Shown: positions 4,421 to 64,000 of the stretch, one piece after another
Position numbering within the stretch: the first letter of the stretch is position 1
Layout of the letters: every line of letters begins with the position of its first letter
Origin: Cetorhinus maximus
Lineage: Eukaryota
DNA length: 64,000 nt
Reading direction: 5' to 3'
NCBI RefSeq assembly: GCF_964194155.1
Contig: NC_135891.1
Span: forward strand, 102,300,001 to 102,364,000
The notes under the pieces: generated by a model
Told to the model about the DNA's origin: nothing
Databases searched by the model: none
What the model saw: the letters and a program-made list of their open reading frames with translations, nothing else
Program-made: the position numbers and the translations under genes

Positions 4421-4717
4421 TGTTGTATGATGTTGTATGTGCCTGCATGCCATTGTCGTGTAAAGGTGCTCAGCAGAACAAGGATTAAAGTGGGACTGGA
4501 GAATAGCATCGCTCACAGTATGATGCATAGTCACATGGTAATAGACTCAGAAGTCAAGAGAGTACACTCTGGAACCTACCTGGAGGTAACAGTACCATGC
4601 ATGACAGTAACCTGGGATCTGTAAATAGTTAAAGGTTAACAACAAAGGGTTCATGTTTAAAAATACAAGTCTCAAGATCTCATCATTGAGACATCTAAAG
4701 AATCCATGTTTACAACA
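4421..4717 (+). repeat. 5' LTR
   Basis: Aligns by eye along its length with 7928-8199 (gcctgcatgccattg...ctggaacctacctg...gacagtaacctgggatctgtaaatagttaaaggttaac...gagacatct.aagaa.ccat...acaaca). Starts with a duplicated tgttgtatg. Confidence 0.9.
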
Positions 4718-7927: not shown

Positions 7928-8199
7928 TCATGGCCTGCATGCCATTGATATGTAAAGGTGCTCAGCAGAGCAAGGTTTAATGTGGGACTGGAGAATTGCA
8001 TCGCCCACACTATGATGCAGAGTCACATGGCAATAGACTCAGAGAACAATCTAGAGAATACACTCTGGAACCTACCTGCACCATGCATGACAGTAACCTG
8101 GGATCTGTAAATAGTTAAAGGTTAACAATAAAGGGTTCATGTTTAAATATGAAAGTCTCAAGATCTCATCGAGACATCTGAAGAACCCATATCACAACA
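7928..8199 (+). repeat. 3' LTR (preceded by polypurine tract 7914-7927; contains AATAAA)
   Basis: Direct repeat of 4421-4717 ending ACAACA; AATAAA at about 8127. Confidence 0.9.
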
Positions 8200-10003: not shown

Positions 10004-10229
10004 AAGATAAAAGCAAAATACTGTGGATTCTGGAAATCTGAAACAAACACAAAAATTGCTGGAAAAACTCAGCAGGTCTGACGGCATCTGTGGAGAGAAA
10101 GACAGAGTTAACGTTTCGAGTCCATATGACTCTTCTTCAGAACTGAGGAACTGAGAACAGTTAACTTGGTCTTTCTCTCCACAAATGCTGTCAGACCTGC
10201 TGAGTTTTTCTGGTAATTTTTGTTTTTGT
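10004..10229. mobile_element. Fold-back mini-insertion of two inverted Penelope termini with a hammerhead ribozyme
   Basis: Left arm ...ggaaaaactcagcaggtctgac.gcatctgtggagagaaagac is the reverse complement of right arm gtctttctctccacaaatgctgtcagacctgctgagttttt. Flanked by ttcaaattattaat / ttcaaattgttaat. Confidence 0.85.
10105..10144 (-). ncRNA. Minimal type I hammerhead ribozyme (Penelope-associated), intact core
   Basis: Minus strand AGTT-CTGAAGA-A-GAGTC(ATATG)GACTC-GAAAC-GTT-AACT: CUGANGA and GAAA boxes, helix II, palindromic ACGT helix III, AGTT/AACT helix I. Confidence 0.75.
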
Positions 10230-11439
10230 TTCAAATTGTTAATGTCAATTACGGATAACAATGGCCCGAGCACAGATCCTTGTGAAACAATGATTTCTAC
10301 GTTCCTCCAGTCTAAGTAACTACCCTTTACCACTACTCTTTTTGTTAGCCAATTTGTTATCCATTCAGCTATTTATCTTTCGTCGTAAACCCTAACCTTT
10401 GTCATGAACTTCACAATTGGTTCCTTATTGAAGGCCTTTTGATAATCCAAACATATGACATCTACTATATTATTCTCTTTCCAATACACATTCCAGGAAT
10501 TTGATCAGGCTAGTTATGCATGGTTTAGCCTTTCAGAGCCATGCTATCTATTGATTGCATTTTCTGTCTCTAGATGCTCTTATCAGTTCTTTTAGTTTTT
10601 ATTCCAGTATCTTTTCTATCACAGACCTTTACCAGTCCTCTGACTCTGTTTCCTCTTCTAAGAAACTATTAGAGTGTCTCTGCTATCTCCCCCCTAGTTT
10701 CCTGGAGAATGTCAGGATGCAAATGATCCAAATTTGGGGTTTTATCCTCTTAGTTTTGCCAGTTGTCAATTATTTTCTCCCTTTTTATCCTAATCATACT
10801 AATCTTCTTTAAGCCTAACCTCCAATGGGGTGTCAATTTCATTACCTTTAGTAAAAGCTAAGGAAAAAGTAGTTATTCGGTATTTCTGCCATTTCTCGAC
10901 CATTACAAAAACGGCCAGCCATTCAGTAGATGCAGATTGCCCTCAACTAGCCCACAGCCACACAGAGGGCTATTTGAGTTTCTAGGTATAGTCTTTTGCT
11001 GTACACCAACTGATTTCTAAAATGGATGAGCTTACATCACAGATGTAAGTCAGGTAGCTTGAAGTCAGGTAGTCTCTCCTTCCTTATCACCCAACCTGGG
11101 GTTCATCCCCATTCAGTTCACCATAATGCTGCAGCAACTGCCTTGGAGGTGAGTAATCTGTTGATGAGTTACTGATGAGGCAGTTCCATAGAGGTACAAA
11201 ATAATGCCATCTCCTGAATTTTGCCAAGGAGGGCCTTTGCTGCAATACAACTTAATGTTAAGAGGCCAAATATTGAGAGAACAGGCAGCCATTTGGTGCT
11301 GGTCTCACAACACCTGCTGCTTTCTCATTCTTTAGTTGTAAGATTTTGTGTGGGAGCAGTTCAGTTACACAGGAGTACAAATTTCTAGATAGCAGAGAGC
11401 TACGCAATGTTTGGAAAGTACAAGGTAAATCTCCAGGCT

Positions 11440-12930: not shown

Positions 12931-13104
12931 TAACATGTTAACTCCAATACACTCACATGAATGAAGATTCTTAAAACTAGTCACAGCAAAGCAGAATTCT
13001 ATTCAAATATTGACTGATGTAACATAAAACTGTACCCTGATCATGTAGCAAGCTTTTTCTTTATGATTATCATTTCCTGAATTAAATATCAAAATTGAAC
13101 TCAC

Positions 13105-17764: not shown

Positions 17765-18730
17765 TTCAATAACAACTTGCAGTTATATAGTGTTTTAAAG
17801 AAATAAAACGTTCCAAGGCACTCCCACAGGAGTATTATAAAACAAAATATGACACCAAGCCACATAAGGAGATATTGCATCAGATGACAAAAGACTTGGT
17901 CAAAAAGGTAGATTTGAAGAAGTGTCTTAAAGGAGTAAAGTAGGGTACAGAGGCAGAGAGGCGTAGGGGGGAATTTCGGAGCTTAGGGCCTAGGCAGCTG
18001 AAGGCACATCCAATGGTGGAGTGGTTAAAATTGGGGATGTTCAAGGGACCAGAATTGGATGAGTGCACTTATTTCAAAAGGCTGTGGGGCATGAGGCGAT
18101 TCCAGCGATAGGGAGGAGCCAGGTCATGGTGGGATTTGAAAACTAGGATGAGAATTTTCAAATCAAGACATTGCTTGACTGGGAGCCAATGGAAGCCAGG
18201 GGAGATGATGGCACCATGGTAATGTCACTGGACTGGTAAGAGACCCAAGGCCCAGGCTAATACTCTGGGGGCATGGGTTCAAATCACACCAAGGAAGCTA
18301 CTGGAATTTAAATTCAATTAATAAAGCTGGAATATAAAGCCAGTCTCAGTAATGGTGACCATGAAACCATTGCCGATTAATGTCCTTTAGGGAAGGAAAT
18401 CTGCCATCCTTACATGGTCTGACCTACATGTGACTTCAGACCCGCAGCAAGGTGGTTGACTCTTAACTGCCCTCTGAAAAGGCCAAGCAAGCCACTTAGT
18501 TCAAGGGCAATTAGGGATGGGCAACAAATGCTGGCCTTGCCACACCGCATGAGCAAATAAAAAAACGTGGGAGACCAGCCAGGAACGTGTTGGAATATTA
18601 CAAAGGTATATGTATATGACCAAGGATTTCAGCAGATGAGCTGAGACAGGGCAATGTTACTGAGGTAGAAACAGGTGGTCTTAGAGATAATGTGAATATG
18701 TGGTTGGAAGCTCATCCCAGGGTCAAATAT
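17765..18730 (-). mobile_element. L2 LINE 3' fragment interrupted by an HE1-type SINE
   Basis: L2-type tail (caacttgca.ttatatag.g..tt...) and AFSCLGPKLRNS (L2 ORF2 C-terminus) in ORF 17880-18068; resumes after 18566. Confidence 0.65.
18199..18565 (+). mobile_element. HE1-type tRNA-derived V-SINE
   Basis: tRNA head (ggtaatgtcactggact...gggttcaaatc), central tttagggaaggaaatctgcc.tccttac.tggtctg core, LINE-shared tail caagggcaattagggatgggcaa and A-tail. Confidence 0.85.
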
Positions 18731-19986: not shown

Positions 19987-22900
19987 TTTTTTCTTATTTG
20001 TTCATGGGATGTAGGGATAGCTTATTGCCCATCCCTAATTGCCCCCAAGGTGGTGGTGGTGAGCTGCCTTCTTAAACCACTGCAGTCCACATGGTGTAGA
20101 TACACCCACAGTGCTGTTAGGGAGGGAGTTCCAGGATTTTGACCCAGCAACAGTGAAGGAACGGAGATATATTTCCAAGTCAGGATGGTGAGTGGCTTGG
20201 AGGGGAACTTCCAAGTGGTGGCGTTCCCATGTGTCTGCTGCTCTCGTCCTTCTAGGTGGTAGCAGTCATGGGTTTGGAAGGTGCTGTTTAAGGAGGCTTG
20301 GTGAGTTCCTGCAGTGCATTTTGTAGCTGGTACACACTGCTGCCACTATGCATTGGTGGTGGAAGGAGTGCCAATCAAACGGGCTGGCTTGTCCTGGGTG
20401 GTGTCAAGCTTCGAGTATTGTTGGAGCTGCACTCATCCAGGCAAGTGGAGAGTATCCCATTACCCTCCTGACCTGTGACTTGTAGATGGTGGACAGGCTT
20501 TGGGGAGTCAGGAGGTAAGTTATTTGTCGCAGGAATCCTAGCCTCTGACCTGCTCTTGTAACCACAGTATTTATATGGTAAGTCCAGTTCAGTATCAGGT
20601 CACTGCTAACCCCCAGGATGTTGATAGTGGGGGATTCAGCGATGGTAATGCCATTGAATGTCATGGGGCAATGGCTGGATTCTCTCTTGTTGGAGATGAT
20701 CATTGCCTGGCACTTATATAGCTTGAATGTTACTTGCCACCTGTCAGCCCAATCCTAGATATTGTCCAGGTCTTGCTGCACTTGGACATGGACTGCTTCA
20801 GTATTCGAGTCGTCGCGAGTGGTGCTGAATATTGTGCAATCATGTGCGAACATCCCCACTTCTGACCTTATGATGGAAGGTCATTGATGAAGCAACTGAA
20901 GGTGGTTGGGCCTAGGACACTACCCTGAGGAACTCCTGCAGTGATGTCCTGGAACTGAGGTGATTGACTTCCAACAACTAAAACCACGTTCCTCTGTGCT
21001 AGGTATGACTCCAACCGGCAGGGAGCTTTCCCTCGATTCACATTAACTCCAGTTTTGCTAGGGTTCCTTGATGCCACACTCGGTCAAACACTGCCCTGAT
21101 GTCAAGGGCAGTCACTCTAACCTCACCTCTGGAGTTCAGATTTTGTCCATGTTTGAACCAAGGCTGTAATGAGGTCAGAAGTCGAGTCATCCTGGCGGAA
21201 CCCAAACTGAGCGTCAGTGAACAGGTTATTGCTAAGCAAGTGCTGCTTGATTGCACTATTGATGACCTCTTCCTTCATTTTATTGATGATCGAGAGTAGA
21301 CAGATGGGGCGCCAACTGACCGGGTTGGATTTGTCTTGCTTTTTGTGGACAGAACATACCTGGGCAATTTTACACATTGCTGGGTAAATGCCAGTGTTAT
21401 AGCTGTATTGGAACAGCTTGGCTAGGGGCGTAGCAAGTTCTGGGGCACGTCTTCATTACTATTGATGGAATATTGTCAGGGCCCATGGCCTTTGCACTAT
21501 CCAGTGCCTTCAGCTGTTTCTTGATATCATGTGGAGTGAATCAAATTGGCTGAAGACGGGCATCTGCGATGCTGGGGACCTCTGGAAAAGGCTGAAATGG
21601 ATCATTCACACTGCACTTCTGGCCGAAGATTCTTGCAAATGCCTCAGCCTTATCTTTTGCACTAATGTGCTGGGCTCTCCCATCATGGAGATCATCAACT
21701 CCAGTGGAGTTGTTTAATTGTCCACCATCATTCATGACTGGATGTGGCGGGACTGCACAGCTTAGATCTGTTCTGTTGGTTGTGGAATCGCTTAGCTCTA
21801 TCACTTGCTGCATATGCTGTTTGGCCACAAGCAGTCCTGTGTTGTAGCTTCACCAGGTTGACACCTCATTCTTTAGGGATGCCTAGTGCTTTTCCTGACA
21901 TGCCCTCCTGCACTCTTCATTGAACCAGGGTTGATTTGCTGGCTTGGCAGTAATGGTAGAGTGGGAGATATGCCGGACCATGAGGTTACAGATTGTAGTT
22001 GAGTACAATTCTGCTGCTGCTGATGGCCAACAGTGCCTCATGGTTGCCCAGTCCAGAGTTGCTAGATCAGTTTGAAAGCTAGCCCATTTACCATGATGGT
22101 AGTGCCACACAACACAATAGAGGGTATCCTCAATATGAAGACAGACTGTCTCCACAAGGACTATGCAGTGGTCACTCCTACCGATATTGTCATGGACAGA
22201 TGCATCTGTGGCAGGCAGGTTGGTGAGGATGAGGTCATGTATGTTTCCCCCTCATTGCTTCCCTTGCCATCTGCCACATTCTAGCAGCGATGTGCTTTAG
22301 GGCTCAGCCAGCTCGGCCTGTATTTGTGCTACTGAGTCACTCTGGGTCTATCACCCAGAGTCCATTCTGTGCCCTTGCCTCCCTTAGTGCTTCCTCCAAG
22401 TGGTGTTCAACATGGAGGAGTACTGATTCATCAGCTGGAGGGTTGGGGTAGGGGGGGGAGGGGGGGGTTGCAGGCAGTACATGGTATTCAGCAAGGGGTT
22501 TCTATGTTTGATCTGATGCCATGAGGCCTCATGGGGTCCAGCATTGATGTTGAGGACTCCCAGGGCAATTCCCTCCCGACCACTGTGTCACCACCTCTGC
22601 TGGGTCAGTCCTGCCAGTGGGGCAGGATATACCCAGGGATGGTGAGGGTTGTGTCTGGGACATAGTCATACTCATAGAATCATATCTTACAGACAATGTC
22701 AGGCACTCTTCAGTGAACCAGACTAGTCTGTGAGACAGCTCTCCCAATTTAGGCACAAGCCAAAAGGAGTTAGTAAGGACTTCAGTCATCGTTTCCAGGT
22801 GGTGTCTCCAGTTTCATTCCTTATTGACTTTTTAGCCGTTTGATGCAATGGAGTGGCTTGCTAGGCCATTTCAGAGGGCATTTAACTTGGATTCACACGT

Positions 22901-23100
22901 AGGCCAGACTAGGTAAGGACAGCAGATTTCCTTCCCTAAAGGACATTAATGAACCAGATGGGTTTTTATGACAATCGGCAATGGTTTCATGGTCAGGTTT
23001 CAAATTCAAATTTCACCTCTGTCATAGGATTTGAACCCCGGTCAGATTGTCTCTGGATTACAAGTCCAGTGACAATACCACTACGCCAATGCCTCTCCCT
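19987..23100 (-). mobile_element. Near full-length HER1-type LINE (APE endonuclease + RT) with a tRNA-derived HE1-like 5' head
   Basis: EN start LVPKLGELSHRLV; QPWFNEECRRAC; RT motifs QFGFRQ, ALDIRAVFDRVWH, GVPQGSVLGPTTFSCFINDL; 3' tail gggcaattagggatgggcaa. 5' end 22845-23100 has A box TGGCGTAGTGG and B box GGTTCAAATCC. Multiple frameshifts. Confidence 0.85.
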
Positions 23101-23369
23101 ATTGACCAATAGTCAATTGAAACCACTGGTCTGGTTCTTCAGCTGCAGCAATTATTTAAACTGAATATGTTCAGGTTAAGTTTAATTCAGCAATCTTGAG
23201 GCCCTATTGTCCATGTTCCAATCAATATTCAATTATGTTTGATTTCATTGCTGTTTTGCACTAATTCATGGGAGATTTTATGTTTTGAGTTTATGCAAAA
23301 GAGTTTGTGCAGAACCTGGTGTACAACTTCACCTTGGCAAAACTGGTGCAGCGTCCAGTGAATTTTCTC

Positions 23370-23753
23370 GATTACACTCCAAGTGGAAACTCCAGGGCCT
23401 GGCAGGCAAGCGTGTTCGGCGGTCCTGGGAGGCGTCAGGAACGGACTGCTGACCGCAATCAGCACCCGACCGTGATTTCACACTGGCTGGCCAATTCACA
23501 GCCAGCCAGCATGAAACGGGCGCTGAAAAGCTCAGCGCTGCTGGCGGGGGGTGGGGGGGGAGAGGAGGGCTGGTGATGACGTTCCTACGGGCGAGCGCTG
23601 AGAGAAAGCTCCCTGAAGGCAGAGAGCTGCCTAAGGGAGCTGCAGGCCCGAAAACCACACAAACACGGGGTGACGTTGGGATGCTCGCCCGATGTCTTCT
23701 CCGGCAATTTTATGCCAGGCGCACGCCTGCCCACAGGGCGTAAAATTCTGCCC
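23370..23753. mobile_element. GC-rich DNA-transposon-derived fragment (Harbinger-like terminus aaaattctgccc)
   Basis: CpG-rich block ending ...gggcgtaaaattctgccc; family call from recalled shark repeats. Confidence 0.35.
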
Positions 23754-26014: not shown

Positions 26015-26155
26015 GCCAAGACCTCATGCCCTGCAATTCACCACATGGACTGCAGCGGTTCAAGGTGGCAGCTCACCACCATTTTCTCAAGGGCAATTAG
26101 GGATGGGCAATAAATGCTGGCCTAGCCACTGACACCCACACCCTGCGAAATAATT
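26015..26155 (+). mobile_element. HER1-type LINE 3' end fragment
   Basis: caccacatggactgcagcggttcaag..ggcagctcaccacca...ctcaagggcaattagggatgggcaataaatgctggcc, same as the 3' end of 19987-23100. Confidence 0.8.
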
Positions 26156-26365: not shown

Positions 26366-26513
26366 AAAGTTGGGTTTAAAAAGTTGGGTTTATAAAGTTG
26401 GGTTTATAAAGTTGGGTTTATAAAGTTGGGTTTATAAAGTTGGGTTTATAAAGTTGGGTTTATAAAGTTGGGTTTATAAAGTTGGGTTTATAAAGTTGGG
26501 TTTATAAAGTTGG
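26366..26513. repeat. 14-bp minisatellite (AAAGTTGGGTTTAT) x ~10.5
   Basis: Directly visible; units identical except the first. Confidence 0.97.
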
Positions 26514-28035: not shown

Positions 28036-28347
28036 AGATTATATAAACATTATTGAACTTGGTTATTTAATAAATTGCTGATTTGCAAAAACTGTCAGTT
28101 TCACATGGAAAGTGTAAAAGGCATGAGGATTAGTAGACTGGTGTTTTACCTGAAAGCACACATTCTTAGAACACGAATCTACGAGACAGCGAGGTGTTTA
28201 GTAGATTCGTGTTCTAAGAATGTGTGCTTTCAGGTAAAACACCAGTCTACTAATCCTCATGCCTTTTACACTTTCCATGTGAAACTGACAGTTTTTGCAA
28301 ATCAGCAATTTATTAAATAACCAAGTTCAATAATGTTTATATAATCT
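28036..28347. repeat. Perfect 147-bp inverted repeat with 18-bp spacer
   Basis: 28036-28182 is the exact reverse complement of 28201-28347; spacer gagacagcgaggtgttta. Confidence 0.97.
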
Positions 28348-35578: not shown

Positions 35579-38165
35579 ACATAGAAAAATAGGAGTAGGT
35601 CATTTGGCCCTTCAAGCCTGCTCCGCCATTCAACATGATCATGGCTGATGCTCTATCTCAACGGCATACTCCCGCTCTCTCCCCATACCCCTTGATGCCT
35701 TGAGTCTAGAAATCTATTTCTTTCTTAAATACATTCAGTAACTTGGCCTCCATAGCCCTGTGATAGAGAATTCCACAGGTTCACCACCCTCTGAGTGAAG
35801 AGGTTTCTTCTTAACTCAGTTCTACCCTGTATCCGGAGACTGTGACCCCTTGTTCTAGGCCCACCCCCAGGCAAAGGAAGCACCCAGTCTGTCCAACCCA
35901 GTCAGAATTTTATACATTTCAATGAGATCCCCTCTCATTCTTCTAAACTCCAGTTAATACAGGTCTAGTGGCCCAATCTCTCCTCATATGACAATCCTGC
36001 CATCCCAGGAATCAGTCTGGTGAACCTTCGCTGCACTCCCTCTAAGGCAAGTATATCCCTTCTTAGGTAAGGAGACCAAATCTGCACACAATACTCTAGG
36101 CGTGGTCTTACCAAGGCCCTGTATAGCTGCAGTAAGACATCTTTGCTCCTATACTCATGTTCTCTCATGAAGAAGGCCAGGGCACCATTTGCCTTCTTAA
36201 CCGCTTGCTGCATCTGCATGCTTGCTTTCAGTGATTGGTGTACAAGGACATCCAGGTCTCTTTGTACATCAACATTTCTCAATCTATCACCATTTAAATA
36301 ACACTCTGCCATTCTGTTTTCCCTACCAAAGTGGATAACTTCACACTTATCCACTTTATACTGCTTCAGCCATGTAATTACCCACTCACTCAACTTGTCT
36401 AAAACGCCCTGAAGCCTCTTATCCTCCTCACCACTCACATTCCCACCTAGTTTTGTCATCAGCAAACTTGGAAATATTACATTTGGTTCCTTCATCCAAA
36501 CCATTGATATTGATTGTGAATAGCTGGTGCCCCAAACACTGATCCTTATGGTACACCACGAGCCACCTCCTGCGCCTCCAAAAAAAAGACCCTTTTATTC
36601 CTACTCTTTGTTTCCTATCTGCTAACCAATTCTCAATCCATGCTAATATATTACCCCCAATCCCATGTGCTTTAATTTTGCACACTGACCTCTTATGTGG
36701 GACTTTATCAAAAGCTTTCTGAAAATCCAAATACACCACATCCACTGGTTCTCCCTCATCTATTCTGCTAGTTATGCCCTCAAAAAACTCCAGTAGGTTT
36801 GTCAAACATGATTTCCCTTTCATAATTCCATGTTGACTTTGTCTAATCCCATTGATATTTTCTAAGTGTCCTGTTATCACATCCTTTATCAATTCTAGCA
36901 TTTTCCCTGCCACTGATGTTAAGCTAACCAGTCTGTAATTCCCTGTTTTTTTTCCTCCCTCCTTTTTTAAATAGCAAGGTTACATTTGCCACCCTCCAAT
37001 ATGCTGGGGTTGTTCCAGAATCTACAGAATTTTGGAAGATGATAACCAACGCATCCACTATTTCCATGGCCACCTCCTTTAGGACCCTGTGATGTAGATT
37101 ATCAGGCCCTGGGGATTTAATCGGCTTTCAGTCCCAGTAATTTCTAAATTTTTTTTAAATAATACTAATTTCCTCAATTCCTCCTCCTCACTAGACTTTT
37201 GGTTCCCTAGTATTTCTGGGAAGTTGTGTGTATCTTCCTCCATGAAGATAGAACTAAAGTAGCTGTTTAATTGCTCTGCCATATTCTTTATTATAAATTC
37301 TCTCGTTTCGGACTGTAAGGGACCTACATTTGTCTTCACTAATCTTTGTTTTCTTAATATTTATAGAAGCTTTTACAGTCCTCTTATGTTCCTTGCAAGT
37401 TTACTCTCATTCTCTATTTTTCTCCTCTTAAATCAATCTCTTGGTCCTCCTTTGCTGAATTCTAAACTGCTCCCAATCCTCAGGCTTGCTACTTTTTCTA
37501 GCAGCTTTATATGACTCCTCTTTGGATCTAATACTATCCTTAATTTCTTTTGTTAGCCATGGTTGGGCCACTTTTCCTGTTGTGTCTTGCACCAGAAAGG
37601 AATCTATAACTGTTGCAATACATACATTAGTTCCTTAAATATTAGCCATTGCCTATCCACCATCATGCCTTTTAATGAAGTTCTCCAATCTATCTTAGTC
37701 AACTCAGGCCTCGTACCTTCATAGATCCTTTGTTTAGATTTAGGACCTTAGTTTTGGATTGGACCACTTCATTTTTTTCCAACCTAAGGGAGAATTCTAT
37801 CATGTTATGGTCACTGTTCCCTAAAGGGCCGTGGACAACAAGATTATGAATTAACCCCTTCTCATTGTGCAAAACAAACTCTAGGAGCACCTGTTCCCTA
37901 GCTGGTTCCTCAACGTACTGGTCTAAAAAAAACAATCTCATACACACTCCAGGAATTCATCCACCACAGTATTGTTGCTAATTTGGTTTGCCCAGTCTCG
38001 ATGTAGATTAAAGTCACCCATGATTACTGTCGCACCCTTGTCACATGCATATCTAATTTCCTGTTTAATACTGTCCCCCTACCTTACCACTTCTATTTGG
38101 AGGCCTATATACAACTTCCACTAATGTTTTCTGCCCCTTGATGCTTCTTATCTCCAGCCAGACAC
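35579..38165 (-). mobile_element. CR1 LINE, 5'-truncated ORF2 (EN end + RT)
   Basis: GPLGNSDHNMIEF, SQHGIMKGKSCLTNLLEFFE, VYLDFQKAFDKVPH, SKFADD, LYRALVRPRLEYCVQIWSP; frameshifted. Confidence 0.95.
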
Positions 38166-40002: not shown

Positions 40003-40207
40003 AAGATAAAAGCAAAATACTGCAGGTGTTAGAAATCTGAAACAAAAACAGAAAATGCTGGAAAAACTCAGCAGGTCTAGCCGCATCTGTGGAGAGAGAA
40101 ACAGAGTTAACGCTTCGAGTCCATACGGACTCAAAGCGTTAACTCTGTTTCTCTCTCCACAGTCGCGGCTAGACCTGCTGAGTTTTTCCAGCATTTTCTG
40201 TTTTTGT
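40003..40207. mobile_element. Palindromic Penelope-terminus mini-insertion with a perfect 14-bp TSD
   Basis: TSD tgctaatgttcact at 39989-40002 and 40208-40221; symmetry centre gagtcc-atac-ggactc is hammerhead helix II. Confidence 0.9.
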
Positions 40208-40289
40208 TGCTAATGTTCACTGTCCAGCCTCATACATTAAAAAAATGGTTGCTTCAACAAGGTACAAGGGTTTTAATGAGAGCCACAGC

Positions 40290-41695: not shown

Positions 41696-42083
41696 CGGGG
41701 GATGGTGGCTTAGTGGTAATGTCACTGGACTAGTAATCCAGAGGCCCAGGCTAATGCTCTGGAGACATGAGTTCAAATCCCATCATGGCAGCTGGTGGAA
41801 TTTAAATTCAATTAAAATGAAACTGAAGTTTCAGTAATTGCAACAAGGAAACTATTAATTGTTGTAAAAGCCTATTTGGTTCACTAATGCCCTTTAGGGG
41901 AGGAAATCTGCCATCCTTACCTGGTCTGGCCTACATGTGGCTCCAGACCCACAGTAATGTGGTTGACTCTGAACTGCTCTCTGCAATGGCCTAGCAAGCC
42001 ACTCAGCTCAAGGGCAATTAGGGATGGACATCAAATGCTGGCCTTACCAGCAATGCCCACATCCCATGAAATAGTAAAAAAAA
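41696..42083 (+). mobile_element. HE1-type tRNA-derived V-SINE, full length
   Basis: A box tggcttagtgg, B box gagttcaaatcc, V core, tail caagggcaattagggatgg...cccacatcccatgaa and A-tail. Confidence 0.88.
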
Positions 42084-45445: not shown

Positions 45446-45698
45446 TCACCACCGTCAACACCCCTTTGTCCTTTTGCCTATGACATCTCTGGCAATCTCT
45501 TCTTTGCCTCCACCTATCACTGGCCCTCTATCCAGCTCTACCTGTCTCACCCCCCTCAACCAGCTTATATTTCACCTCATTTCTATTTTTCTTTAGTTCT
45601 GATGAAGAGTCATACGGACCCAAAACATTTACTGTATTCCTCTCCGCAGATGCTGTCAGACCTGCTGAGTTTTTTCCAGCTATTTTTGTTTTTGTTTG
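45446..45698 (+). mobile_element. Penelope 3'-terminal fragment with degenerate hammerhead
   Basis: Closely matches 54210-54460; ctgatgaagagtcatacggacccaaaac (GAAA box mutated); flanked by agagtttg repeats. Confidence 0.88.
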
Positions 45699-47359: not shown

Positions 47360-47920
47360 ACAATATTACAGCCTACACTTTTGGTTGATAAATGGAAAGT
47401 AGCGTTCTCACCGCACAAACATCACAAGCAATGCCCATCACCAGGAGAAAGATCATGACCATTAACATTCAGTGGCATTACCATCACAGAGTTTCCCACC
47501 ATCAACTCCCTGGTAGTCACCGTTGACCAGAAACTGAACTGAACCAGTCATCTAAGTGTTGTGGCTACTAGATCAGGTCAGACGTTGGGTATTCTCTGGT
47601 AATTGGCTTACCTCCCAGCTTCCCAAAGCCTCTTTACCAGCTATAAAACACAAGTCAACAGTGTGATGGCAAACTTTCCATTTGCCTGGTTGGACACAGC
47701 TCTTACAACACAGGAAGTTCAATACGATCAAGGACAAGGCAGTCTGCTTAGTCAGCACCCCATTCACTCCATCATTGGATAGCACTGAAGCAGCATCTTC
47801 ACATGAATGCAGCTATCCAAGAAGGTGGCTAACCATCTTCTTAGAGGAAACTAAGAATGAGCAATAAATGTCAGCCTTGGCAGCAACGTCCATATCCAGA
47901 GACTGAAGTTTAAAAAAAAG
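47360..47920 (+). mobile_element. Degenerate HER1-type LINE 3' fragment
   Basis: acattcagtggcattaccatcac.gagtttcccaccatcaac...gttgaccagaaactgaactg.accag parallels 20400-20750 (opposite strand). Confidence 0.7.
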
Positions 47921-50235: not shown

Positions 50236-51002
50236 TGGTAGTGGCACAGTTTTACTTCAGGTCCCCCCCCACCCCCCCTTTCCCCCCACCCAGTCACCCA
50301 CTTCCTTTCCCCCCATTACTGTTGACACCCTGGCCACCTCCCCACCATCATCTACCATTCACAACCCTTGGCAGCAGAATAATGCATCCTGTATTATTCA
50401 ATACAGGTGAAAATGTGCCAAAGTCAGGTTCTAATTCTTTTCAAGTGAATGCTGGGCAATGTCAAAGTTTAACTGGCGTTCAGGTTGCAGATCACAACCC
50501 TGGCTTTGGTTATCTTTGTTAAACATAATTGCCAAGATGAATTAAGAGGCTACAAGACATTCCGATTAGGAAACCATGCATTCTACACAGCTTAATCGAA
50601 GGTTTAGCCTTCATCTTATGAAGGCAATAGCCCAGATTTTGCAGCTGTAATGACAGGGAAACTATCAGCAGACACAGTCATTACAACTGTGAATTTGACA
50701 GCAATATTTGACATCTGCATTTATACAGTTAACTTGGAAATCTAGAAATCAATGATTCCTTGCTACACCACAGGGTATGGTATTGAAATCCAGGGAGATT
50801 GAAATCCTAAGGAATCACTTGAATTGCCTTTAATACCTTCATTAAAGTTTTCACTTGAAGGCACAAAATAAACTTATATTTACATAGTGCCTTTAATGCA
50901 ATAAAATATCCCAATACATGTAACTGTCCTGCAAAATATAATTTTTTTAGAAAAATTTGTTGCTTAAACCATAATTAGAAAGTTCAATTCTGAATTTTTA
51001 AA

Positions 51003-51313
51003 ATTTGTTCATGGGATGTGGGCATCACTGGAATTTGCTATTCCTTAATTGCCCTGTTCAGAGGGTATTTAAGAGTCAACCACATTGCTGTAGGTCTGGA
51101 GTCACATGTAGACCAGACCAGGCAAGAACAGCAGGTCTTCCTTCCCTAAAGAACATTTGTGAACCAGGTGTGTTTTTACAACAATTGATCATTAGACTTT
51201 TAATTCCAGGATATTATTGAATTCAAATTCCACCATCTGCTGTAGTGGGATTCGAACTTGAGTCCTCAGCGCATTACCAGTACAGTGACAATACCACTAC
51301 GCCATCGCCTCGC
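51003..51313 (-). mobile_element. HE1-type V-SINE (variant head/tail junction)
   Basis: Minus strand: tggcgtagtggtattgtcactg...gttcgaatccc...ccctctgaac|agggcaattaagg...cccacatcccatgaacaaa. Confidence 0.85.
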
Positions 51314-51898
51314 CATATGATGCAATTTCATTACAAATGAAATGTGCATGCTTACATGTAGTTTTCCTATTGTAAATGCTGGTTTAAAACGTATACACTA
51401 TACATTATATGAACACTACTGGTTCTCCATTGAGATTATGCTGTCATAACACTGAGGGTTATGTAATGTCATTCAATGTACTAGGACCACTATTTTGTTA
51501 CAACTGAATAAGTCAAATTGCATTATTACATGATATTCTTGGATTTTTGTTGGTGTACTGGAGTCAAATAAGACATTAAGTAGCACTGGAGTTCTCCAGA
51601 GCTTTCAAGAACTGGTGGGGATTTGTTCTTATTGGCAGCATTGAGGAAAAGCATGTTGGAAAATGACGATGCTGGGAGAGCAATCCTGGGTTAACCACTA
51701 GTGAGGTGAGGAGAAAAGGGAAGAAAGGGGCATTGCTCTGGACACCTCAGAATCAATCCTCTATCAGAAAAATAGAGATTACGTCTCGGAAAAAGGAATT
51801 AAATACACTCACAACCAACCAAAGTTCGGAAATGTTACGAGTCAGTTGAAATATTTAGGCTTTTTAAAAAAAAGACAAGTTTAAAATCTATATTTTCA

Positions 51899-53280
51899 AA
51901 AAAAAGAACTGGAAAAACTCAGCAGGTCTGACAGCATCTGCGGAGAGGAATACAGTTAAAGTTTCGAGTCCGTATGACTCTTCATAAGAACTAAGGAAAT
52001 ATAGAAATGTGATGAAATATAAGCTTGTTGAGGGGGTGGGACAGATAGAGCTGGATAGAGGGCCAGTGATAGGTGGAGGCAAAGAAGAGATTGCCAAAGA
52101 TGTCATAGACAAAAGGACAAAGGGGTGTTGACGGTGGTGATATTAGCTAAGGAATGTGCTAATGGTGACATTAAAGGTAGAAAGCAGGACAAGCAAGGGA
52201 CAGATAGCCCTAGTGGGGGTGGGGTGGTGGGGAAGGGGTTGAAATGGGCTAAAAGATGGAGATAAAACGATAGATCGAAATAAATTTAAAAATAGGTCAC
52301 AAAAGAAAAATATATATTTTTTAAATTATAAATTATTGGAAAATTATAAATTATTGGAAAGGGGGTGGGGATGGAGGAGCGAGTTCATGATCTGAAGTTG
52401 TTGAACTCTATGTTAAGTCCGGAAGGCTGTAGCGTGCCTAGTCGGAAGATGAGGTGCTGTTCCTCCAGTTTGCATTGAGCTTCACTGGAACATTGCAGCA
52501 GGCCAAGGGCGGACATGTGGGCATGAGAGCAGGGTGGTGTGTTGAAATGGCAAGCGACAGGGAGGTCTGGGTCATGCTTATGGACAGAACGAAGGTGTTC
52601 CATAAAGCGGTCACCCAGTCTGCGTTTGATCTCTCCAATGTAGAGGAAACCGCATTGGAAGCAGCGAATGCAATAGACTAAATTGAGGGAAGTGCAAATG
52701 AAGTGCTGCTTCACTTGAAAGGAGTGTTTGGGCCCTTGGACAGTGAGGAGGGGGGAAGTAAAGGGGCAGGTGTTACACCTTCTGCAGTTGCATGGGAAGA
52801 TGCTGTGGGAGGGGGTTGAGGTGTAGGGGGTGATGGAGGAGTGGACCAGGGTGTCCCGGAGGGAACGATCCCTGTGGAATGTCGCCGGGGGGGTGGTGAA
52901 GGGAAGGTGTGTTTGGTGGTGGCATCATGCTGGAGTTGGCGGAAATGGCGAAGGATGATCCTTTGAATGCGGAGGCTGGTGGGGTGACAAGTGAGGACAA
53001 GAGGGACCCTATCATGGTTCTGGGAGGGAGAGGAAAGAGTGAGGGTTGATGCGCGGAAGATGGGCCGGACACGGTTGAGGGCCCTGTCAACCACCGTAGG
53101 TGGAAAACCTCAGTTAAGGAAGGAGGAAGACATGTCAGAGGAACTGTTTTTGAAAGTGGCATCATCAGAACAGATGCGACAGAGGCGAAGGAACTGAGAG
53201 AATGGGGTGAAGTCCTTACAGGAAGTGGGGCGTGAGGAGCTGTAGTCGAGGTAGCTGTGGGAGTCGGTAGGCTTGGAATG
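51899..53280 (-). mobile_element. Penelope-like element, left arm (RT C-terminus + GIY-YIG + 3' region)
   Basis: KPTDSHSYLDYSSSRP...FSQFLRLCRICSD; NLVYCIRCFQCGFLYIGEIKRRLGDRFMEH...LEEQHLIFRLGTLQPSGLN. Confidence 0.95.
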
Positions 53281-53294
53281 AAATTGAGGGATGT

Positions 53295-54493
53295 CTTTCC
53301 TACCTCCTGCGCATCCGCCCTCACTCCTTCCTCTCCCTCCCAGAACCATGATAGGGTCCCCCTTGTCCTCACTTATCACCCCACCAGCCTCCGCATTCAA
53401 AGGATCATCCTCCACCATTTCCGCCAACTCCAGCATGATGCCACCACCAAACACATCTTCCCTTCAGCCCCCCGGAGGCATTCCGCAGGGATCGTTCCCT
53501 CCGGGACACCCTGGTCCACTCCTCCGTCACCCCCTACACCTCAACCCCCTCCCACAGCACTTTCCCATGCAACCACAGGTGTAACACCAGCCCCTTTACT
53601 TTCCCCATCTTCACTGTCCAAGGGCCCAAACACTCCTTTCAAGTGAAGCAGCACTTCACTTGCACTTCCCTCAATTTAGTCTACTGCATTCGCTGCTCCC
53701 AAAGCAGTCTCCTCTACTTTGGAGAGACCAAACACAGACTGGGTGACCGCTTTGCGGAACACCTTCGGTCTGTCCGAAAGCATGACCCAGACCTCCCTGT
53801 CACTTACCATTTCAACACACCACCCTGCTCTCATGCCCACATGTCCATCCTTGGCCTGCTGCAATGTTCCAGTGAAGCTCAATGCAAACTGGAGGAACAG
53901 CACCTCATCTTCCGACTAGGCACGCTACAGCCTTCCGGACTTAACATAGAGTTCAACAACTTCAGATCACGAACATTCTCCTCCATCCCCACCCCCTTTC
54001 CGATTCCCTTTTTTCCAATAATACATAAATTTTAAAAAATATATATTTTTCCCCACCTATTTTAAAATTTATTTTGATGTATCGTTTTATCTCCACCTTA
54101 TAGCCCATTTCGATCCCTTCCCCCCACCCCACCCCACTAGGACCATCTGTCACTTGCTTGTCCTGCTTTCTACCCTTAATGCCACCATTAGCACATTCCT
54201 TAGATAATATCACCACCGTCAACACCCCTTTGTCCTTTTGTCTATGACATCTTTGGCAATCTCTTCTTTGCCTCCACCTATCACTGGCCCTCTATCCAGC
54301 TCTACATGTCCCACCCCCCTCAACCAGCTTATATTTCACCACATTTCTATATTTCCTTAGTTCTGATGAAGAGTCATACGGACTTGAAACGTTAACTGTA
54401 TTCCTCTCCGCAAATGCTGTCAGACCTGCTGAGTTTTTCCAGCTATTTTTGTTTTTGTTTCAGATTTCCAGCATCCGCAGTATTTTTTGCTTT
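53295..54493 (+). mobile_element. Penelope-like element, right (inverted) arm
   Basis: Reverse complement of about 51899-53062 with scattered substitutions; GIY-YIG ORF 53643-54035. Confidence 0.95.
54359..54397 (+). ncRNA. Minimal type I hammerhead ribozyme in the Penelope 3' region
   Basis: AGTT-CTGATGA-A-GAGTC(ATACG)GACTT-GAAAC-GTT-AACT. Confidence 0.78.
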
Positions 54494-62737: not shown

Positions 62738-64000
62738 ACTATATAGGAACAGAAGGCGGCCATTCAGCCCATTGAGTCTGCTCCGCCATTCAATATGATC
62801 AAGGCTGATTGAACACTTCGATGCCTTTTACCTACACAATCCCCATAACCCTCTATGTTATTGTTAATCAGAAATATATCAATCTCTACCTTAAACATAC
62901 TTAATGACTGAGCTTCCATGGCCCTCTGGAGTGGAGAATTCCAAAGATTCGCAACCCCCTTGAGTAAAGAAATTTCCCCTCATTTCTGTCCTAAGTGGTT
63001 GCCCCCTTACTTTGAAATTCTAGACTCCCCAACCAGGGGAAACATCTTACCTGCATCTACCCTGTCTATTCCTTTAAGTATTTTATAGGTTTCAATGAGA
63101 TTACCTCATTCTTCGAAACCCTAGAGAATACAGGCCCAATTTGCCCAATCTCTCTTCATAAGACAGTCCCACCACCTCCCAGAATAAGTCTGGTGAACCT
63201 TTGTTGCACTCCCTCTATGGCAATAATATGCTTTCTGAGGTAATGGGACCAAAATTGCACACAGTACTCCAGGTGCAGTCTAACCAAGCTTCTATACAAG
63301 TGAAGCAAATCCTCTTGCGATAAAGGCTAACATTCCATTAGCCTTCCTAGTAGCTTGCTGCACTTGCATGTTAGCTTTCAGTAACTTATGGACAAGGACA
63401 CCCAGGTCCCCTTGTACATCTACGCTTTCTAATCTCTTACCATTTAGGAAATAGTCTGCACATCTGTTCATTCTACCAAAATAAATAACCTCACATTTTT
63501 CCACATTATATCCCACCTGCCATGTTCTTGCCCAATCACTAAGTCTATCCAAATCCTCCTGTAGACGCTTTACATCTTCTTCACAACACACATTCCCGCC
63601 TAGCTTTGTATCATCTGCAAACTTGGAAATATTACATTTGGTCCCCACATCCAAATCATTGACACATATTGTGAACAGCTGGGGCCCAAGTGCTGATCCT
63701 TGCGTTACCCCACTAGTCACAGCCTGCCAACGCGAGAATGACCTGTTTATTCCTACTCTGTTTGCTGCCTGTTCGCCAATCCTTAATCCATGCCAGTATA
63801 TTGCCTCCTATTCCACGTGCTTTTATTTTGCTAATCAACCTCCTGTGGTGGACTTTATCAAAAGCCTTCTAAAGATCCAAGTATACGACATTCATCGCCT
63901 CTCCTTTATCAATTGTATTAGTAACATCCTCAAAAAACTCCAACAAGCTTGTCAAACATGATTTCCCATTCACAACTCAATGCTGACTGTGCCCAATCAG
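62738..64000 (-). mobile_element. CR1 LINE RT and 3' end, continuing past the window edge
   Basis: VTSGVTQGSALGPQLFTICVNDLD...SKFADDTKLGG...KCEVIYFGR. Confidence 0.95.

Follow-up and report, generated by a model that had tools for sequence, protein, structure and literature searches.

A tRNA-like head at the 5' end of a Zenon-type LINE in a shark REXO1 intron and its relation to neighbouring SINEs

Introduction

Two working rules are applied to LINEs and SINEs: the former are transcripts of polymerase II and the latter of polymerase III (PMC10886601), and, according to the accessible text of PMC5786205, the head of a SINE is joined to LINE parts afterwards. The locus described here raises the question of whether these rules hold for a protein-coding LINE that itself starts with a tRNA-like head, and of how such a LINE is related to the SINEs lying near it.

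The window, i.e., the whole 64-kb stretch that was analysed, is shark DNA, and the greater part of REXO1 lies in it on the minus strand, with coding exons between 34 and 57240 (tblastn); the large exon shares 98% identity with a named protein of a lamnid. An atlas search with the host exon sequence produced nothing usable. The LINE sits in a REXO1 intron, flanked by the exons 24550-24404 and 13225-13106, and is in sense orientation to the gene.

The window harbors several other features. A GC-rich segment, probably another repeat, lies immediately upstream of the LINE (23300-23750). In a large foldback (51898-54486), the inverted arms are nested, about 1.2 kb long, and 91-94% complementary, and a third, partial copy of it is present at 45446-45674. 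A near-perfect hairpin at 28036-28347 has arms of 153 nt, 99% complementary, and a loop of 6 nt, while at 26366-26513 a 14-nt unit with a telomere-like G/T core is repeated in tandem (10.6 copies, 99% matches). An abundant family of short palindromic repeats includes several head-to-head pairs (10007-10246, 15367, 17176, 32113, 40006-40224, and 58535), and a segment of about 240 nt occurs twice, 3.5 kb apart (4441-4684 and 7933-8170, 90-93% alike). Finally, fragments of another, CR1-like LINE family with RT, 76-77% alike, are found on the minus strand at 35974-37124 and 63159-63998.

Organization of the LINE Copy

The LINE and its parts are as follows:

19987..23099, minus strand: Zenon-type LINE copy, 3113 nt, near full-length and decayed (published consensus lengths 3288 and 3293)
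23020..23099, minus strand: tRNA-like head, with A box 23088-23078, B box 23037-23028, and a tRNA-like anticodon arm between them
22851..23019, minus strand: LINE 5' UTR body, common to the SINEs, V-domain absent, with copy-specific deletions
22790..22850, minus strand: LINE-specific linker from body to endonuclease, with an ATG at 22817
22140..22789, minus strand: APE endonuclease region, broken (tblastn to P0022; 3' limit approximate)
22660..22721, plus strand: copy-specific inversion of 62 nt inside the endonuclease (reads and translation)
20035..21452, minus strand: reverse transcriptase and C-terminal region, broken (Pfam RVT_1; tblastn to P0020 and P0051)
19987..20044, minus strand: 3' tail common to the SINEs, with an A-rich end (tail alignment)

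The initial annotation had described a minus-strand head with A and B boxes that runs into a linker and the APE endonuclease, with neither SINE tail nor A-tract nor room for an ORF1. This description was borne out: both boxes are present, and in the 19987-23099 copy the sequence is continuous from head to linker to endonuclease, SINE tail and A-tract being absent between them. The body is the 170-nt stretch that separates the linker from the tRNA-like head. The linker is directly joined, as had been claimed, but the length of about 70 nt given for it was not reproduced, since it spans 62 nt before the homologous endonuclease begins to align (22789); by eye, it is about 20 nt shorter in this copy than in the published consensus. 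Because the endonuclease homology begins at 22789, which is 62 nt past the body and 310 nt from the LINE 5' end, the space is too short for an ORF1. The ATG of the linker is shared by this copy and the two published consensus sequences.

Downstream of the linker, the endonuclease sequence LVPKLGELSHRLV was read at 22759-22721 on the minus strand. P0022, the tblastn match of this region, carries Pfam Exo_endo_phos, and Pfam RVT_1 was found on 21126-21452 (E 1e-7). Despite decay, the LINE is collinear with the single APE-RT proteins P0020 and P0051 (tblastn), with a single ORF2 for APE and RT; its coding frame closes with a stop at 20035.

The frame contains many stops, frameshifts, and short deletions, together with the internal inversion, and the copy is dead. 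At least 218 reads have an opposite-strand joint 22659/22721, and the plus-strand translation of 22660-22721 is the endonuclease piece missing from the minus strand. Moreover, loose ends of reads at 22885/22888 and 22995 mark the body deletions specific to this copy. The LINE, an old copy, closes at its 3' end with a short, A-rich sequence containing six A. No target-site duplication above chance was detected for the LINE (69 of 200 random windows scored equally); a 12-nt exact flank match at 23151/19872 was rejected as such a duplication, lying 50 and 115 nt from the LINE ends. The search with the linker and endonuclease start as a protein query yielded no candidate; a metagenome pattern scan gave four distant loci (23-36% identity), and pattern scans for relatives retrieved none from genome contigs and none from viral contigs.

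Recurrence of the Junction in Reads and Published Sequences

Four out of 24 sequencing runs (X1, X16, X18, and X21) were compared with 22480-23290 at 80% likeness; none of the 24 is recorded as RNA. In the raw reads of X21, the depth is 0-1 on the unique flank of the LINE and 1749 reads at the linker position 22845 (1567 with a letter not found at this locus; 246 start places). It is 1383 reads at 22837 and 1256 at 22832, and drops to about 200 at 22788-22815; the linker reads therefore have their anchor in the body and span the junction. The endonuclease has depths of the same order as the linker (1712 at 22607 and 2501 at 22751), and the body peaks at 12,996 (22949). X21 is a capture library, and its read depths therefore give no copy number.

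The variant at 22845 was also found in contigs (at least 128 of X1, 25 of X16, and 46 of X18). X16 and X18 come from other organisms, and the body-linker junction is thus crossed by other copies in three organisms. These two runs may be RNA, and they enter here as sequence, not as a sign of expression. At least three X1 contigs join the endonuclease to the body (22761 to 22851), and in X18 its connection to the linker (22758 to 22807) is seen in at least one contig. Among the X18 loose ends listed, both routes out of the body are represented, namely the SINE tail at 22851 (43) and the continuing linker at 22839 (11). Reads and contigs connect the linker with the body alone; for the tRNA part and the coding part, the connection is given by this copy and by published consensus sequences.

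The accessible text of PMC13343379 (2026) describes Zenon LINEs, without ORF1 and with a poly-A tail, in five elasmobranchs, and has them as still absent from repeat databases. In the available portion of its Supplementary Table 2, the junction motif occurs in five rows, two of which were compared over 400 letters each. CarCar_Zenon-1 (3288 letters) and RhiTyp_Zenon-1 (3293 letters) have, in that portion, the tRNA head first, then the same body and the same junction. These consensus sequences run from the head across the junction, and the gap left by the reads is therefore closed. Starting at the A box, this copy and CarCar_Zenon-1 have 39 of 40 letters in common by eye; compared with the published Zenon, 35 of 35 letters before the junction and 21 of 26 after it agree (first 400 letters). 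Furthermore, the majority read letters at 22850, 22849, 22845, and 22832 are those of CarCar_Zenon-1. The tail motif had no match in the table, where the sequences are incomplete and the comparison covers their first 400 letters.

Comparison of these sequences establishes that the family is one of compact LINEs with a single ORF, in which the tRNA head regularly forms the 5' end, because the junction recurs in the reads and in two published consensus sequences. A LINE of this organization had been proposed at the outset, with a junction unique to this copy named as the observation that would speak against it; reads in three organisms and the two consensus sequences agree with the proposal.

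The LINE is best filed as an elasmobranch Zenon, an assignment made by consensus identity over the first 400 letters and by structure. It is a variant within the known Zenon clade, whose tRNA head we did not find remarked in print. In the accessible main text of PMC13343379, the words "tRNA" and "promoter" do not occur, and the accessible passage with "SINE" is the title of a reference. No description of a tRNA-headed Zenon was found in the literature searched; most subscription journals, Repbase, Dfam, the authors' Zenodo set, and bioRxiv supplements lay outside that search and may note one.

SINEs and LINE Fragments in the Window

Three SINEs and two LINE fragments bear on the relationship between the two classes:

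18199..18545, plus strand: SINE with head, body, and LINE tail; breakpoint after caagccact
41696..42080, plus strand: SINE with the breakpoint type of the 18199 copy, after caagccact (ARAGORN tRNA call and alignment)
50990..51316, minus strand: SINE with the head subfamily nearest to the LINE; breakpoint after ccctctgaa, about 20 nt earlier
26039..26152, plus strand: 5'-truncated copy of the LINE 3' end (sequence comparison)
47384..47906, plus strand: older remnant from the 3' part of a related LINE (70% identity over 318 nt)

The SINEs at 18199 and 41696 had been reported to share the LINE head up to caagccact and then to jump to its last 60 nt or so. The alignment upheld this: up to caagccact they score 197.5 and 250.5 against the LINE head (shuffle maxima 42.5 and 62). 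The SINE at 51316, absent from the initial annotation, is a third one. All three end in the last ~60 nt of the LINE, with tail scores of 44, 62, and 58.5 for the copies at 18199, 41696, and 51316 versus shuffle maxima of 36.5, 31.5, and 35, respectively. According to the alignment, all three have tRNA-derived heads with A and B boxes, the B box showing single changes in those at 41696 and 51316. Target-site duplications above chance were found for none of the three (70, 21, and 110 of 200 random windows were equal, in the same order).

In a four-way alignment, the informative sites group the LINE head with the SINE at 51316 in 13 cases, with that at 18199 in four, and with that at 41696 in three; these 20 sites include several poorly aligned ones between 23024 and 22977, and also 22868 and 22863, both past the breakpoint of the 51316 copy. 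The grouping of the LINE with the latter holds in the tRNA part and in the body alike, some sites being poorly aligned. Judging from these sites, the SINEs at 18199 and 41696 belong to a head subfamily different from that of the LINE. An origin of the SINEs by internal deletion of the LINE, as originally suggested, would best fit the copy at 51316.

The body had been taken for a V-SINE core, and the SINEs and the LINE had been connected with HE1 and HER1. HE1 is listed as a V-SINE in the accessible parts of PMC3747384 and PMC4824008. The motif common to the V-SINEs Racla, Empe, Thedo, Crag, and Ante (PMC5804259 supplement) had no match in the 64-kb window at up to three mismatches. The V-SINE reading of the body was given up, and the identity of the SINEs with HE1 was rejected because the V motif is absent, HE1 and HER1 being compared by description only; the LINE, in turn, matches the published Zenon consensus. 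A motif search for copies of the SINE body in the supplements of PMC4824008, PMC5804259, PMC11481361, and PMC4758252 and in 12 of the 33 files of PMC10294476 did not retrieve any.

The Head as a Putative Promoter

The Rfam tRNA match to the head (23020-23087) is weak, with 14.9 bits and E 3.6, under the gathering score of 29; at the gathering threshold, Rfam had no matches across the window. ARAGORN called a tRNA-Thr(agt) at 41699-41790, which is the homologous head in the SINE at 41696. The LINE head folds no better than shuffles (z 0.40), and among the heads and tails folded the z-score was never beyond -0.9. The A and B boxes are intact, by eye, in CarCar_Zenon-1 and RhiTyp_Zenon-1. Most likely, the head represents a putative internal type-2 RNA polymerase III promoter.

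The coding strand of this LINE copy contains three TTTT runs and no T5. The count of three compares with 5.87 expected from composition (P 0.13, not significant) and with 3.16 under dinucleotide shuffling; the CR1-like fragments used as a control have five TTTT in 1151 nt (35974-37124) and four in 840 nt (63159-63998), as expected. At the run of 22762-22764, other copies carry different letters (e.g., 92 of 116 reads at 22762), and at that of 21589, two shark homologues have Pro, not Phe; these two of the three runs, the third being at 20983, look like decay of this copy.

Polymerase III transcripts are uncapped. An uncapped polymerase III RNA is hard to square with the translation of a protein of about 950 residues.

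Proposed Mechanism and Alternative Explanations

The SINEs consist of the two ends of the LINE, joined at two different breakpoints. The explanation that we favor, with moderate confidence, is that the locus is a dead copy of an elasmobranch Zenon whose regular tRNA head would act as a polymerase III promoter, and that the SINEs would have arisen by loss of the middle. With the putative promoter inside the head, each full-length insertion would carry its own promoter, in a SINE-like manner. The transcript would be copied from its 3' tail by target-primed reverse transcription, which is established for LINEs generally. If the reverse transcription jumped between the tail and the body end, or if the middle was deleted, the product would have both promoter and tail; such a deletion product would be a working SINE in one step, and more than one breakpoint could be used. 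The protein could be supplied by host polymerase II read-through of intronic copies.

A more far-reaching reading would make the element LINE and SINE at once. Polymerase III would transcribe the 3.3-kb RNA of this autonomous, protein-coding retrotransposon, using an internal promoter of the tRNA type that has been conserved among distant sharks; translation would be cap-free, and new SINE families would form by single deletions. We advance it tentatively, as somewhat short of an even chance.

The head may also be fixed in the LINE without being a promoter. Polymerase II would then produce the RNA, starting in the body or reading through from the host, with the tRNA-like fold as a processing signal, e.g., for an RNase P cut at the 5' end, comparable with the 5' ribozymes of R2 and RTE. 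This would yield an equally sharp 5' boundary, and six LINE clades with 5' self-cleaving ribozymes are mentioned in the accessible text of PMC5786205; moreover, the copy lies in a host intron on the sense strand, and its depletion in T-runs is not significant. On the other hand, the A and B boxes are, by eye, the best-kept parts in both consensus sequences, and the same head is found on SINEs, whose definition makes them polymerase III units. Cutting would likewise leave the RNA uncapped, and the translation problem would stay. We regard a processing signal as unlikely.

Another possibility is that the direction was reversed: a SINE with head and body would have come first, a 5'-truncated Zenon would have captured it by template switching, and the SINEs would form an older, independent lineage with the tail alone in common. 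The moth element Persaeus, derived from Zenon, is without tRNA homology in the accessible description, which implies that the head was gained at some point. The different head subfamily of the SINEs at 18199 and 41696 also points in this direction, as does the ratio of body to linker reads, which is roughly 7 to 1 in X21 (12,996 at 22949 vs. 1749). Against it, the body is not the widespread V-domain, and the SINE at 51316, which combines the head subfamily of the LINE with a breakpoint of its own, would need at least one later deletion or swap. Such a capture seems to us rather improbable; as far as transcription is concerned, it is compatible with, and not exclusive of, the favored explanation of a polymerase III promoter in the head.

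Lastly, a one-off chimera, in which a tail-less SINE adjoins a 5'-truncated LINE by chance, agrees with the lack of a target-site duplication enclosing both parts and is nonetheless excluded, its probability being negligible, by the recurrence of the junction in three organisms, where more than 1000 reads have letters that differ from this locus, and by its presence in both published consensus sequences.

Significance

A tRNA head that is built into an abundant LINE family would open a way from LINE to SINE in a single step, and the headed LINE would identify the source of one SINE body. It also makes testable the polymerase III transcription of a natural 3-kb coding retroelement and, then, its translation. 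In the annotation of shark repeats, this LINE will lose its 5' end to a separate SINE entry.

Comparison with Known Systems

The elasmobranch Zenon sequences CarCar_Zenon-1 and RhiTyp_Zenon-1 share with this LINE the first ~330 nt, including the head and the junction. They are of the same length class, with one APE+RT frame and no ORF1, and no structural difference emerges from the accessible portion of the published set.

The HE1 V-SINE and HER1 LINE of sharks likewise comprise a tRNA-headed SINE with a 3' tail common to its partner LINE; HE1 possesses a V-domain, whereas the SINEs of the window lack the V motif, HE1 and HER1 being known here from partial descriptions only. Other shark repeats are described in the accessible parts of PMC5499810 and PMC1513397, and CR1-Zenon is a SINE partner via its tail in bivalves, according to the portion of PMC11481361 available.

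In Lepidoptera, the accessible text on Persaeus and Zenon (PMC6740152) reports that Zenon repeatedly gives rise to short elements made of its own 5' and 3' ends, i.e., internally deleted derivatives without a tRNA head. Persaeus has, in that text, neither tRNA homology nor a polymerase III promoter, in contrast to the tRNA-like heads of the window SINEs; an assignment of the latter to the Persaeus-type SIDE class was rejected on account of these heads.

For bipartite SINEs of the Bov-tA model, RTE and Vingi are the only reported sources given in the accessible text of PMC5786205; these SINEs have a body from the LINE 5' UTR and a tail from the LINE 3' end, as here. According to the same text, their tRNA head was added after the deletion and the LINE has no head, whereas here the LINE itself has one. 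RTE-1_DAn and related elements, also from that text, are LINEs with a tRNA-like sequence matching many SINE2 elements, like the headed LINE described here; they belong to the clade RTE, not to Zenon.
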